From sequence record MT682711.1: DNA of 64,000 bases. One strand, written 5' to 3'. Position numbers and translations under genes: made by a program. The stretch's first letter is position 1. Every line of letters starts with the position of its first letter. This stretch comes from Escherichia phage vB_EcoM_FB. Shown in pieces: positions 6,068 through 47,157 of this stretch. The notes below the pieces were generated by a model. The model searched no databases, was not told the origin of the DNA, and saw nothing but the letters and a program-made list of their open reading frames with translations.

Positions 6068-6298
6068 TTAATCCTTTGGAGTCAATTCAATAGTGAAGTA
6101 GAAATTAGCGTTCTCAACATGATAACGATAATCTACGTTATTGTCAGGAGAAGTGAATTCAATATTCCTGACGTTAAGTGGGTCAATATCAATAGGAAGG
6201 CCTTTAACATCCCGTAATATCAATTTAATAAAATAAGGGAGTGCTTCGAAGTCTTCCATTCCATCTAAAAGTGGAGTGATATTAATCTGATGTTCCAT
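6068..6298 (-). CDS. hypothetical protein
   Basis: Track ORF starts at GTG 6334; first ATG at 6298 inside gene 55 3-prime end. Confidence 0.35.
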
Positions 6299-6839
6299 AT
6301 AAAAAATCCAGTTCACCAACTTTAGGTTCGGCACTCTTATCAGACCCTGGTGCTTTAGTTAAAGAGGTTTCATACTGAGTCATTTTGTCGTAGATATCTT
6401 GGATAAAGGTTTCATCTGCAATACCTACCATGTCGTCATCATTACTGTCATAGACATTATGGACGAAGTAGCTATATTTCTTTGCCATTTCTTTACGTTC
6501 TTTTTTGATACGCTGAACGAAGGCATTAAAACAAGCCATAGTGATATATGCATGTGGGTTGTCGTATTTTGTTTCGTCGAAATTGTGAAGACCTTTAATC
6601 GAAGCTTCGATTCCATCAGCTATCATTTCCTGCCGCCAAGATTGGGTATATCCTGAGAAGTTGAAACGCTTGCTGAGGCCTTCTGCTATAAGCATAATAG
6701 CCAATCCTATAGTATCATTTTGTCTAATGATTTTATTAGGGTCGGTGTTAGCATATAATTCCTGCTTCCAACTTGTAATAGCTTTAAGAAGCTCCTTGTT
6801 ATTTACATAATTATTTTTTGTTAACTTCACCTGATTCAT
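6282..6839 (-). CDS. 55: late-transcription sigma factor gp55
   Basis: [58 protein letters not shown] matches T4 gp55 as recalled; start at ATG 6839. Confidence 0.9.
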
Positions 6840-30005: not shown

Positions 30006-30486
30006 ATGCTTTCCAAGTACCTGTTTTAAATGTTGAAATCACGCGCTTAGCACGATTAGGAGTTTGTTTATACCAACGGGATTGAGCCAGGTTAACTGCC
30101 GCATCGTTCCAACGTTTCTGTTGGAGCATACGTAAAGAGTTAGTGAACCCTGCTACGCCTGCTTCACCCATTTGGAAGACCATGTTAATTAAAGCACAAC
30201 GACGAACTTCGTCCAGTACATCATAAACAGGTTTCAATTTAGGATTACGCAGAATAGCTCTACGAGCATTTTCAACCGATCGATTAAAGAGTTGCTCGGC
30301 TTCAGCCATAGTAATACGACCATTACAAACTCGACCCATAAGCTTATCAAGTTCAGCGCGAGCAACGTCTTTAGATGGGTTCTTGGTAATCAACTGACCA
30401 ATGCCAATAGTCCAATAACCTTCGGTGTCTTTATAAAGATTTAAATCAAGACCTTCGTCTTGACGTAACATATCAAAAATATCCAT
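29992..30486 (-). CDS. e: lysozyme e (endolysin)
   Basis: 164 aa; Glu11, Asp20, Thr26 conserved; [31 protein letters not shown] as in T4 lysozyme. Confidence 0.9.
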
Positions 30487-30489
30487 AAT

Positions 30490-30515
30490 ACCTCCGAGTA
30501 TAGGAGGTATTTATA
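30490..30515 (-). promoter_or_regulatory. late promoter TATAAATA plus SD-sequestering hairpin for gene e
   Basis: Minus strand TATAAATA at 30515..30508, then ACCTCC-loop-GGAGGT hairpin whose downstream arm is the SD. Confidence 0.6.
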
Positions 30516-42815: not shown

Positions 42816-43643
42816 TTAAGAATTCTTCCATACTTTCTGAGCTGAGTAACGCTTACCTTTAGACATGAACTGTTGGAGAGGCATCATTACGACATTAGCC
42901 CAATCAGATGGTTTTATCTCTACTAAAGGTCCCTTAATATTTCCAGGGATATAAGCCTTAATCATCACGTCGGCGCCAGCGAATCCTTTTACCTTACTCC
43001 AATCGATTTTTAATTTAGTCGAGTTCGTAATGGTAGGCGTACTCGCGTATTGCTTCAGCAATTCTTCCAGAAATTGTTGTCGTGCTTTAGGTGGGATATA
43101 GTGTAAGTTCAGCCCGTACATTAAATTATGCTTACCTAGCCCAAGATAAATGATTAATGGATATTTGTCCCAGTACGGTAGGGTATCCTTATGTTTGGCA
43201 TCATAGATATACGCATAAAGCTTACCAGGAGATGGTTTAGATACCTGGTGCCCACGAATTCCTTTCTTTAATGTTTCTGTAAACCATTTAGCCGATTTAT
43301 TGTTTACAGCGGCGCCCTCGTTAGCAATCTTATCACGAATACTCTTTCTAAAACTATTCACCAAAATTAATTGACGTTCTGCTTTGGTTAATTTATTGCC
43401 AGGTTTCTTCTGAAGTTTTTCAACCTGTACAGCAGTTTTAATTCGACTCGAGTATCGAGACATCGCAGATGTAAAGCTAGAATACTTGATGCCTTTATCT
43501 TCAGCGAATTTCTTAGCCGAAACACCTTTAGCCTTAGCGTTGGCATATTCAACGCCTAAAGTTATCCATTGTTGTTCTGAACGAGTAGGCTTGGAACCTT
43601 TTGTAGTTTCAGTAGCCTCGTTGATGTAAGAAAATATACTCAT
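42816..43643 (-). CDS. 2: DNA end protector gp2 (by position and size)
   Basis: Start at ATG 43643 forming ATGA overlap with gene 4 stop. Confidence 0.6.
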
Positions 43644-44089
43644 CCTTTCCATCCTAATTTTTTCAGTGAGTTTTCGGTAATCAATCTGAAATTAATTCCC
43701 ATTTTATCTGCTGTAGCTTTAGCAGCTTTCCATTTATCTTTATTTACACTCCATGTATAATGTTCGTTGATATATCTCTTTTTAGCAGCTGTAGTCATTT
43801 TAGCAGGCGCCGCTGGAGGATGGGTCTCTTTAAAAGGTTTGACTTCGAAAAAGAATTGTTGACCATTGTCGAACTTCACCCAGAAGTCCATAAAATACCG
43901 ACGTTTCTTTCCATCAGCGTTACTAAAATATGGAATCACAACCTCTTCCGAGTTCCACTGGACGACATTAGGATGGTTGTCAAGCCAACGCATAAGCCAT
44001 GCTTCCCAAGAGGAACGATATTGGATTTTCTTCCAATCACCTTTATATTTTTGTAAGTTTGTAGGTTTAAATTTCCCTGAGTAGGCCAT
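43640..44089 (-). CDS. 4: head completion protein gp4
   Basis: MAYSGKF.. N-terminus and 149 aa as recalled for T4 gp4. Confidence 0.75.
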
Positions 44090-44099
44090 AGTGCCTCCT

Positions 44100-44107
44100 T
44101 ATAAATA
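44100..44107 (+). promoter_or_regulatory. late promoter TATAAATA for gene 53
   Basis: Exact TATAAATA 28 nt upstream of gene 53 ATG, GGAGG SD between. Confidence 0.65.
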
Positions 44108-44114
44108 TTAATAT

Positions 44115-44122
44115 TATTTATA
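44115..44122 (-). promoter_or_regulatory. late promoter TATAAATA for gene 4
   Basis: Exact TATAAATA on minus strand; the two boxes sit inside a 9-bp inverted repeat AGTGCCTCC/GGAGGCACT. Confidence 0.6.
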
Positions 44123-44134
44123 CTCGGAGGCACT

Positions 44135-44737
44135 ATGCTCTTCTCATTTTTCGATCCTATAAATTACGAATCAAAAACAGTCAAGCCAGATTCCGGCTCA
44201 TTAACTGATGCCGATGTACTGAGCGTACCGATGACTGATATATTTAGAAACTATAAAGAATATTTTGATAAAGTGGCTAAAAATTATACACTTAAAACAT
44301 ATTATATCAGTGGGGCCCCTCGTCCAGAAGAATTAGCCCATCAACTTTATGGTAACGTGCAATTATATTGGATCCTTTTAATGTGTAACAATATCTATGA
44401 CCCTTATTACGGCTGGATTACAGGCCAAGAATCTGCGTATCAAGCAGCTATTCAACGTTATGCTACTGCAGGCGGAAACCAAGTCCTTTATCATGTCAAT
44501 GAAAAGGGTGAGAAATTCTGGAATCTAGTAAATACTCCGGAAAATCCTTATACTTGGTACGATAAAGGTGATACAGAAAAACGTTATCCTCAATATGAAG
44601 GTCCTTTGGCTGCAGTAGATATTTACGAGGACGCCATTCGTAAAAATGAATATAAGCGCGAAATAAAGATTATAGACCCTAATGACATCGAGTCCTTTGT
44701 TTCCGCTTTAATTAGAGAAATGGAGAAGTCACTCTAA
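44135..44737 (+). CDS. 53: baseplate wedge protein gp53
   Basis: MLFSFFDPINYESKTV.. N-terminus and 200 aa as recalled for T4 gp53. Confidence 0.8.
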   Translation: MLFSFFDPINYESKTVKPDSGSLTDADVLSVPMTDIFRNYKEYFDKVAKNYTLKTYYISGAPRPEELAHQLYGNVQLYWILLMCNNIYDPYYGWITGQESAYQAAIQRYATAGGNQVLYHVNEKGEKFWNLVNTPENPYTWYDKGDTEKRYPQYEGPLAAVDIYEDAIRKNEYKREIKIIDPNDIESFVSALIREMEKSL

Positions 44738-45249
44738 TGTTTTATTACGTCTATAAAATAACCAATATAATTAATGGTAAATTTTATATCGGTGCTCATA
44801 GTACATCAAATATGGATGACGGTTATATGGGCTCAGGTAAATTAATTAAACGCGCTATACTAAAATACGGCATTGAAAATTTCAAAAAAGAAATATTAAA
44901 ATTTGTTGATTCTAAAAAAGAAATGTATGAACTCGAAAAAGAACTTGTTGTCCTTACTGAAAATTCATACAATTTAAAACCGGGCGGTTCCGGTGGGTTT
45001 TTAAAACATGATAACTTTAAAGGCAGGTCCCATAGTCAGAAAACCAAAGATATTATGAGCGCTAATAACTCAGGCAAAAACAATCCTATGTATGGTAGAA
45101 AACGAGACCAACACGGAGAAAAAGCACCTAATTATGGTAAAAAGTGCTCTGAGGCTAAAAGAAAATTACTTTCTGAAAAATCTAAATCCTATTTTGAAAA
45201 CCTTCAAACCATAACTAAAAAATCTCGGCTTTGGTCCTACATCGGTTGA
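44737..45249 (+). CDS. GIY-YIG homing endonuclease (Seg-like)
   Basis: FYYVYKITNIINGKFYIGAHS GIY-YIG motif, [14 protein letters not shown]-like Gly/Lys repeats. Confidence 0.8.
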   Translation: MFYYVYKITNIINGKFYIGAHSTSNMDDGYMGSGKLIKRAILKYGIENFKKEILKFVDSKKEMYELEKELVVLTENSYNLKPGGSGGFLKHDNFKGRSHSQKTKDIMSANNSGKNNPMYGRKRDQHGEKAPNYGKKCSEAKRKLLSEKSKSYFENLQTITKKSRLWSYIG

Positions 45250-45369: not shown

Positions 45370-47157
45370 ATGATTAACATGTCTGATAATGTAAGTTGGT
45401 TCGTCGGTGTAGTTGAAGACCGAATGGACCCGCTCCAACAAGGCCGAGTACGCGTGCGCGTATGGGGTATGCATCCTTACGAAAAGGTCCAAGGTCCTGT
45501 AAAAGGCCTTCGTACAGAGGATTTACCGTGGATGTCCGTATTAATGCCTACATCTTCTGCCTCTGTTTCTGGTATCCAAACCGCTATGACTGGTATGGTT
45601 CCAGGTACTCAGGTTTATGGGCACTTTCTTGATAAGTGGAAATTAAACGGGCTTGTCCTCGGTACATATGGTTCCGCTTCAAGACAAAAGGCTAATCCTA
45701 ATGAAGGTTTTAGTGACCCGACAGGTCAATACCCACTTTATTTGGGTAATGATGCTGCAGCACTAAACCGAGGTGGTGAAGTTGGATACGATGCCACTTC
45801 CAACGTAATACAAGATGCAAACACCGATGTAGGTATTAATCCTGATGGTTTAGATTTGAGCCAGGTTAAGCCTGATGATAATCCTAATTTCACAATAGAA
45901 AACATGCTTCACCGTGATGAAGGGCTTCGACTGAAGGTATATTGGGACACCGAAGGATACCCTACTATCGGTATAGGTCACCTTATTACACCACAACCTA
46001 TTAGAGATATGAATCAAATAAACAAAATATTATCTAATCAGGTAGGACGAGAAGTTAAAGGTAACCCTGGTGCAATATCAATGGACGAGGTTTCTAAATT
46101 ATTCCAAGACGACCTTAAAAAAGTCCAAAACGATATAGGCAGGCATAGTGTTGTAGGTCCTGTTTATAATAAAGAAAACCGTTCGAGACAAATGGCTCTT
46201 GAAAACATGGCTTTCCAAATGGGATTGGGCGGCTTGGCTAAATTCCGTGGAATGCTTAGTGCAATGCTAATAGGCGATTATAAAAAGGCATTTGAGGAAG
46301 CTCGTAATTCAGTATGGTTTAACCAAACTAAAGGCCGTGCATCAAGGGTGTCAATGATTATCCTCACAGGTAACATGGAATCATATGGTATTATGGCCCC
46401 TAAAGAAAGGTCATTTAATGGCCGTTCGTATAGAATGATTCAAACCTTTGTGGCCCCTACAAATTCAGACCCTGCCGACCCGTGGACTCCAGAAGACACA
46501 AGGATTCTTTTTAAAGAACCTGATTCTAGTTATAAAGGCGAATATCCATATGTCCAAACCATGCAAACTGAAGGCGGGCATATCCAAGAATTCGATAATA
46601 CTCCAGGGCAAGAACGATACCGTTTAATCCATCCTACCGGTAGTTATGAAGAAGTTGCTCCTGATGGACGTAAAACTTCTAAGACGGTAGCCGATGGTTA
46701 TTATATGACCCAAGGCGATTCAAATACTTATGTTGGTGGTAATAATAAAGTCAACGTTGGTGGCGATGAAACCTATTATAATATGGCAAACGTGCGCCGT
46801 CAAACTGATGGGTCTGAAAGCATTCATATTCGAGGGAATGAAACCAAAACTGTAGAAGGTAATGGAACTCTGCTTGTTAAAGGAAATGTTAAAATAGTTA
46901 TTATGGGTACTGCTGATATAACTGTTGAACAAGAAGCATATATTACGGTTGAAAAAGATACAACAGTTAATGTCAACCAGAATGCAGATATAAGCGTTAA
47001 ACAAAAGGCCACAATCAATGCTCAAAATATGGATGTAAATGTCGAACAAGATTTAAATTTTGCAGCGACGAACATTAATTTAAACGCATCAAATACTGTG
47101 CATATGGATGGCGGTTCATTAGCTAAAGTATCTGGTGGCAACGTACAGGTCGGTTAA
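45370..47157 (+). CDS. 5: baseplate central spike gp5 with lysozyme domain
   Basis: N-terminal OB-like region, internal lysozyme block (HRDEGLRLKVYWDTEGYPTIGIGHL), C-terminal V-N-V repeat beta-helix. Confidence 0.85.
   Translation: MINMSDNVSWFVGVVEDRMDPLQQGRVRVRVWGMHPYEKVQGPVKGLRTEDLPWMSVLMPTSSASVSGIQTAMTGMVPGTQVYGHFLDKWKLNGLVLGTYGSASRQKANPNEGFSDPTGQYPLYLGNDAAALNRGGEVGYDATSNVIQDANTDVGINPDGLDLSQVKPDDNPNFTIENMLHRDEGLRLKVYWDTEGYPTIGIGHLITPQPIRDMNQINKILSNQVGREVKGNPGAISMDEVSKLFQDDLKKVQNDIGRHSVVGPVYNKENRSRQMALENMAFQMGLGGLAKFRGMLSAMLIGDYKKAFEEARNSVWFNQTKGRASRVSMIILTGNMESYGIMAPKERSFNGRSYRMIQTFVAPTNSDPADPWTPEDTRILFKEPDSSYKGEYPYVQTMQTEGGHIQEFDNTPGQERYRLIHPTGSYEEVAPDGRKTSKTVADGYYMTQGDSNTYVGGNNKVNVGGDETYYNMANVRRQTDGSESIHIRGNETKTVEGNGTLLVKGNVKIVIMGTADITVEQEAYITVEKDTTVNVNQNADISVKQKATINAQNMDVNVEQDLNFAATNINLNASNTVHMDGGSLAKVSGGNVQVG

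Follow-up and report, generated by a model that had tools for sequence, protein, structure and literature searches.

The 45-nt spacer between the divergent genes 4 and 53 is best read as the Dhakavirus ortholog of the T4 4/53 late control region, in which two gp55-dependent late promoters cross each other and the conspicuous inverted repeat around them is a consequence of the mirror-image layout; we put the probability of this reading at about 0.85. The arrangement as such is already known: it is orthologous to the 4/53 late control of T4 and RB69, and the RB69 pair was predicted in 2006. The window, by which we mean the whole stretch of 64,000 nt that was analysed, belongs to a T4-like coliphage, a Dhakavirus, with 99.5% identity to IME540 and LHE83 and ~99% to WG01 and QL01.

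Layout of the junction and the predicted late promoters

Read directly on the plus strand, the spacer (44090-44134) is composed of AGTGCCTCC-T-TATAAATA-TTAATAT-TATTTATA-CTC-GGAGGCACT, where TATTTATA (44115-44122) corresponds to TATAAATA on the minus strand (Table 1). An earlier reading of the letters alone (hereafter the sequence-only reading) had placed an exact octamer on each strand, at 44100-44107 (plus) and 44115-44122 (minus), and both occupy precisely these positions; likewise, the two 9-nt arms (44090-44098 and 44126-44134, AGTGCCTCC and GGAGGCACT), which it had described as reverse complements with a GGAGG in each, are exactly that. The GGAGG of each arm stands on the coding strand of its own gene, 4 nt 5' of the start codon, and with both start codons counted the perfect inverted repeat measures 12 nt; a 21-nt version of the repeat, 86% complementary, extends into both coding regions. 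The octamers form a second, inner palindrome of 8 bp, the axis of which is shifted by 1 nt from that of the outer palindrome, so that a hairpin folded from the two would carry a 1-nt/3-nt internal loop.

Table 1. Coordinates in the window of the junction elements, of the two flanking genes and of the gene for the late sigma factor
Feature	Position	Strand	Remarks
Left arm CATAGTGCCTCC	44087..44098		Minus-strand reading: GGAGG (44098-44094), CACT, ATG, i.e. SD, spacer and start of gene 4
Late-promoter box P53, TATAAATA	44100..44107	+	Predicted for gene 53; positions -13 to -6
Inter-box spacer TTAATAT	44108..44114		7 nt, all A/T; contains both predicted late starts
Late-promoter box P4, TATAAATA	44115..44122	-	Predicted for gene 4
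Right arm GGAGGCACTATG	44126..44137	+	SD (44126-44130), spacer CACT and start of gene 53
Gene 4, head completion/head closure	43640..44089	-	149 aa; leads the leftward late unit 4-2-3
Gene 53, baseplate wedge subunit	44135..44737	+	200 aa; leads the rightward late unit 53-(seg-like)-5...
Gene 55, late sigma factor	6285..6839	-	PHROG 'late sigma transcription factor', E 7e-68

The product of gene 4, which starts with the ATG at 44089-44087 of the minus strand (CAT on the plus strand), matches the PHROG family 'head closure' with E-values of 1e-63 to 1e-65, carries a Pfam TnsA-like N-terminal domain and is annotated as head completion protein in relatives of 99.5% identity; the product of gene 53 matches Pfam Phage_gp53 (E 1.7e-72) and the PHROG family 'baseplate wedge subunit'. 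The factor expected to act in trans on both boxes is gp55, and the gene 55 product of the window is 94.6% identical to the '55 gene product' of IME540 (tblastn). The sliding clamp gp45 lies partly inside the window, at its left edge (3-521).

T4 late promoters consist of an 8-bp box at -13 to -6 (PMC1524935) with an A/T-rich segment downstream of it, and they need no -35 element (PMC2988020); gp55 recognises the box inside the bubble, on the single-stranded non-template DNA, and the polymerase is tethered by gp45 with a defined polarity (PMC7892883). The junction displays the features expected of promoters of this type, namely exact octamers, a segment from -5 to -1 made up of A and T throughout (TTAAT for P53, ATATT for P4), virion genes downstream, a gp55 encoded by the same genome, and conservation at the orthologous site, where near relatives carry consensus boxes, and Krischvirus and distant relatives carry variant ones. 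In boxes of this type an A is tolerated at -13. Each of the two boxes lies 18-19 nt upstream of its own SD, and besides them no further (T/A)ATAAATA is present upstream of gene 4 or gene 53. A sigma-70 promoter in the spacer was considered and rejected, a sigma-70-like scan having found no match there. As regards activity, Geiduschek and Kassavetis caution that it has not been shown in vivo for all of the 50 listed T4 late-promoter sites (PMC2988020).

Could such a pair arise by chance in A+T-rich sequence? The window holds eight exact copies of TATAAATA, where 8.4 are expected from shuffles, so the argument for promoters rests on position and conservation, not on the count. When the window was simulated 300 times with a first-order Markov model, an opposed pair of octamers no more than 15 nt apart never appeared, and when the 27-nt A+T spacer was shuffled, only 0.2% of the shuffled sequences contained both octamers; these simulations and shuffles, together with the conservation of the pair across genera, led us to reject chance as the explanation.

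The predicted promoters cross, in that P53, which points rightward, is the closer of the two boxes to gene 4, and P4, which points leftward, the closer to gene 53; 7 bp separate them. At late times the host RNA polymerase, equipped with gp55 and together with gp33 and the gp45 clamp, would melt the A/T-only centre, read TATAAATA on the strand that is non-template for the direction taken and start about 6 nt downstream. P53 is predicted to start at the A at ~44113 (plus strand), which would yield a 22-nt leader, AUUAUUUAUACUCGGAGGCACU-AUG, and P4 at the A at ~44109 (minus strand), with a predicted 20-nt leader, AAUAUUUAUAAGGAGGCACU-AUG. The box of one promoter would then appear, in complementary form, at the beginning of the other's leader, at +3 to +10 of that transcript, and each leader would close with GGAGG-CACT-AUG. 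Both open complexes would further need the same melted stretch of ~10 bp, roughly 44107-44115, and because these base pairs would be shared, only one direction could be taken per initiation event; the two promoters are thus probably overlapping and mutually exclusive. Finally, since the predicted starts at 44113 and 44109 fall inside the loop of the hairpin, neither late mRNA would possess both arms and the hairpin could not form there. The idea of a hairpin in the late mRNAs was accordingly rejected: the leaders, with one arm each, gave z-scores of -0.3 and -1.0 when folded alone.

The junction in other T4-like phages

A comparison of this junction in other T4-like genomes had been suggested by the sequence-only reading. 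Carried out on 29 IMG/VR loci and 14 further phage records, it revealed paired boxes in T4, RB69 and some dozen further lineages; wherever gene 4 directly faces a divergent late gene in the lineages sampled, late-promoter-like boxes stand on both strands. The pair is absent where a homing-endonuclease gene or another gene lies codirectionally just upstream of gene 4. The T4 junction reads CAT-TGGATTCTCC-T-TATAAATA-GATAATA-TATTTATA-AACAGGAGGGCCC-ATG, with the boxes, their order and the 7-nt gap as in the window, and both octamers and the 7-nt gap recur in RB69. Besides these two phages and Dhakavirus, consensus-type boxes were found in Gaprivervirus, in Kanagawavirus, in a Jiaodavirus-like Klebsiella phage and in several contigs. 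Krischvirus JSE has a perfect TATAAATA on the gene 53 side and GATAAATA on the gene 4 side; the gene-4-side box is off consensus in Slopekvirus and Pseudotevenvirus as well, in both of which it is only a loose match. Variants of the CTAAATA type occur in Slopekvirus, Pseudotevenvirus, the KVP40-like vibriophage phi-ST2, cyanophage syn9 and rhizobiophage phiN3. The partner of gene 4 in phi-ST2, syn9 and phiN3 encodes gp48 and not gp53, and their short spacers carry late boxes of the CTAAATA or the CATAAATA type on both strands, those of phiN3 forming a symmetric CCTAAATA pair.

When 14 distinct junctions were aligned with MAFFT, the only invariant columns were the two ATAAATA cores (TATTTAT for the minus-strand box). 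Most lineages show the crossing arrangement, in which the boxes are 6-11 nt apart. Two other geometries were encountered: at the 4/53 junction of Serratia phage SP1, as at the 26/51 junction of RB69, the boxes overlap back to back in the palindrome TATTTATAAATA, and in phi-ST2 two separate boxes point away from each other. The RB69 26/51 pair (118604-118689) coincides with a prediction by Nolan et al. 2006 (Pl:118620/118672). As to the reach of the searches, scans for the exact core returned only six Dhakavirus contigs that were already in the set and two metagenome contigs, the latter being used for arm variants; a scan of IMG/VR for TATAAATA-N3-15-TATTTATA was uninformative, unrelated A+T-rich contigs, including those of giant viruses, being among the matches listed.

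How much of this was on record? The late promoters Pl:80613(+) and Pl:80684(-) of RB69, predicted with an HMM (Nolan et al. 2006, Additional file 5; PMC1524935), cover exactly the two boxes of the RB69 4/53 spacer (start positions 80626 for gene 4 and 80688 for gene 53), Pl:80684 being the counterpart of P4. The T4 records NC_000866 and AF158101 carry no annotated promoter features, and the sequence of the T4 4/53 junction was not found as text in the literature searched. The T4 late-promoter list of Miller et al. 2003 reportedly includes promoters for genes 4 and 53. A T4 dRNA-seq preprint, with data in GEO under GSE255091, gives 150 phage TSSs.

Taken together, the comparison lends strong support to one half of what the sequence-only reading had proposed, namely that a single module provides a promoter and an RBS for each of the two divergent genes, and on these alignments the promoter and RBS assignment is well supported; the other half, the palindrome as a structural element in its own right, draws no support from it.

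The inverted repeat: selected structure or by-product of symmetry

The sequence-only reading had added that the palindrome could form a cruciform or an RNA hairpin, and in folding calculations the predicted structure is stable. An RNA reading through the whole module folds with -32 to -33 kcal/mol (z ~-8), with SD and AUG paired on both strands. Such stability invites the view that the repeat is a selected RNA element, in which the 5' arm of any read-through RNA, on either strand, would mask SD and AUG, and from which the late RNAs, lacking the 5' arm, would escape; early or middle minus-strand RNA that crosses gene 53 in antisense and hides the SD and AUG of gene 4 would be one example. This would amount to a two-way version of the mechanism established for T4 genes e, soc, 49 and I-TevI (PMC3014915), and the predicted late starts do lie within the loop. 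The window even contains a gene e of the classic design, TATAAATA-CCTCC-TATACTC-GGAGG-TATT-ATG. We nevertheless consider a selected switch of this kind unlikely, for the reasons that follow.

The first concerns conservation. The arms were not conserved and showed no covariation: across the 14 junctions the outer helix was 73% paired with covariation not above shuffles (46/500), the two central spacer pairs were unpaired in 11 and in 9 of the 14, and past the SD core and the start codons nothing in the outer arms was conserved. The inner helix is invariant, being made up of the two promoter boxes. The corresponding T4 hairpin, moreover, is of low stability (-13 to -17 kcal/mol, z -1 to -2).

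The second concerns what symmetry alone would produce. Mirror-image SDs are complementary automatically, and a motif-only null, in which boxes, SD cores and start codons are held fixed and the SD-to-start spacers are randomised, already reaches ~-14 kcal/mol for the layout of the window. Against this null, the arms of Dhakavirus pair significantly better (z -2 to -3.8), which speaks for selection, as does the borderline value for Krischvirus (z -1.9); Gaprivervirus and T4 are borderline too, the values for these four running from -1.3 to -3.8, but in six of ten lineages (z +0.2 to +0.9) the arms pair no better than the null. Among Dhakavirus sequences, three left spacers (CACT, CAACT and CGACT) and three right ones (CACT, CCCT and CTCT) were met with, in eight of the nine possible combinations, the perfect repeat arising from CACT/CACT alone; QL01 represents this perfect type and IME281, with CAACT/CCCT, an imperfect one. 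The sequences of these variants indicate free assortment and not compensation, which argues against a maintained helix.

The third concerns the RNA on which a switch would act. The early-type genes of the window lie on the minus strand, making minus-strand read-through conceivable, but no upstream early or middle promoter was found: to the right of the junction, a search of the minus strand for middle promoters with a MotA box found none in either the window or T4, and sigma-70-like matches stay at chance level. A terminator-like hairpin also stands upstream in the minus-strand sense, and the documented examples of the gene e mechanism include neither gene 4 nor gene 53 (PMC3014915). The hairpin in question, followed by a T-run, occupies 44172-44200 on the minus strand, within the 5'-terminal part of gene 53; wobble variants in other Dhakaviruses keep its central pair twice and break it twice, so it is probably due to chance. 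In tblastn searches antisense to gene 5, similarity to T4 repEB appeared at 45395-45502 (minus strand, E 7e-5) and to repEA at 46532-46654 (minus strand, E 6e-9); because both are confounded by the conservation of gene 5, they were not used as a sign of early antisense transcription.

Were a two-way switch, against the odds, to operate, the translation of genes 4 and 53 would be silenced on read-through RNA arriving from either side, and the late RNAs would escape by virtue of their starts in the loop. A more elaborate version, in which Dhakavirus and, independently, the RB49-like Krischvirus have extended the module to a strong hairpin that silences read-through translation both ways, and in which the crossing geometry, kept from T4 to cyanophages, forces head-completion and baseplate transcription to alternate at one shared melted site, strikes us as equally doubtful.

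A hairpin followed by T residues also calls to mind an intrinsic terminator. The plus-strand hairpin at 44078-44146 (-32.8 kcal/mol) is followed directly by five T (44147-44151) and might insulate the junction against antisense RNA from genes 2 and 4, P53 RNA being spared by its start inside the loop. This is highly improbable: the T-run encodes conserved Phe-Phe codons of gp53, the terminator-shaped hairpin is weak or absent in most relatives, a consensus terminator scan did not flag 44078-44151, and no plus-strand promoter is known upstream. At the DNA level, the near-perfect 51-bp palindrome folds as single-stranded DNA with -13.5 kcal/mol (z ~-7.5), and DsbA is reported to bind with low affinity at A/T-rich sites that overlap two T4 late promoters (PMC2988020), so one might think of a cruciform or of a site for a dimeric protein (an operator, or a DsbA-like site) in place of the promoters or in addition to them. 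What is conserved, though, are the promoter cores only, and with a gap of 6-11 nt and variable arms two independent boxes fit better than one dimer site, for which no candidate regulator is known either; we regard this possibility as extremely improbable.

The reading that we prefer is that the repeat is, as judged from these comparisons, a by-product and not a conserved structure. The palindrome would be the geometric outcome of box, SD and start codon being laid in mirror image, and the perfect arms, with CACT on both sides, a coincidence at the level of lineage or strain, perhaps aided by templated correction of quasi-palindromes. Such correction is a mutational process first described in T4 rII, and it would favour perfect arms without selection. 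The pairing beyond the null in Dhakavirus and Krischvirus, and weakly in Gaprivervirus and T4, can be accommodated by the by-product model only through chance or through such quasi-palindrome correction.

Relation to known systems and significance

What, then, sets this junction apart from the systems it resembles? With the T4 4/53 region (NC_000866, 77338-77384) it shares orthologous genes, a crossing pair of TATAAATA, a 7-nt gap, an A/T-only centre and an SD on each side; the T4 spacer, however, measures 47 bp as against 45 bp, and its arms pair merely through CTCCT/AGGAG and a few further bases, so that its hairpin reaches -13 to -17 kcal/mol compared with -25 to -33 kcal/mol in the window. 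The T4 counterparts of the two predicted starts would lie at ~77362 (plus strand) and ~77358 (minus strand). RB69 differs in a longer gene 53 leader, a TTG start and the absence of the extended inverted repeat. The TATTTATAAATA type of RB69 26/51 and SP1 4/53 likewise provides each of two divergent virion genes with a late promoter from one short A/T palindrome, but there the boxes overlap by 4 nt and point apart, with predicted starts ~23 bp apart and leaders that are free of the other promoter's box, whereas the boxes of the window cross, with predicted starts 4 bp apart, and its predicted leaders would contain that box. The leaders of gene e, soc, 49 and I-TevI resemble the window in the placement of a late promoter within a hairpin able to hide SD and AUG, the 5' arm of which is missing from the late transcripts and, by prediction, would be missing from those of the window; in those cases, however, the hairpin is kept among relatives and upstream early transcripts are documented, whereas the hairpin of the window is not conserved.

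A further parallel is offered by bacterial bidirectional (pseudo-symmetric) sigma-70 promoters (Warman et al. 2021; PMC12825309), the symmetry of which allows RNA polymerase to bind either way, one binding event excluding the other, as might also apply to the symmetric boxes of the window. They differ in using a shared or overlapping -10 hexamer, with starts typically 18, 10 or 23 bp apart, where the window has two separate 8-bp boxes that would be read by the phage's gp55, with predicted starts ~4 bp apart. The pseudo-symmetry of the window is accordingly that of an inverted 8-bp pair spaced by 7 bp, i.e. of separate gp55 boxes, and not that of a shared sigma-70 -10 element.

The value of these findings lies mainly in annotation, in that Dhakavirus keeps the T4 late-signal layout at 4/53 and the predicted starts at 44113 (plus strand) and 44109 (minus strand) can be added. 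Two points were not found stated in the literature searched, both of them minor: that the gene 4 junction retains an opposed pair as far out as cyanophages and rhizobiophages, and that it comes in two geometries, crossing and back-to-back. Since they recur in T4-like phages that are very distant from one another, those with gp48 as the partner included, the opposed late boxes may serve as a landmark, and as a compact natural bidirectional late promoter the module might be of use in phage engineering. A more general lesson is that mirror-image promoter and RBS modules can yield striking palindromes and very negative folding z-scores without any selection for structure.

Some minor observations may be added. 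In the leader of gene e (lysozyme; 30484-30515, minus strand), the late promoter feeds the 5' arm of the SD-hiding hairpin, and the 12-mer TATACTCGGAGG is common to this leader and that of gene 53 (44119-44130). In the IMG/VR contigs L020-L022, in the stretch just before position 1501, the gene 4 homolog has its ATG only 4 nt past a perfect TATAAATA (TATAAATATAGTATG); the late mRNA of gene 4 would be leaderless there, or nearly so, unless the true start lies further downstream. Between genes 53 and 5 of the window lies a GIY-YIG/NUMOD3 seg-like homing-endonuclease ORF (44737-45249, plus strand) of 170 aa, which has 211 aa in IME540; in the feature lists of QL01, WG01 and LHE83, gene 53 is adjoined by gene 5 and not by the seg-like gene, which is apparently absent. 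The ORF resembles a mobile insertion, and it may be truncated in the window.
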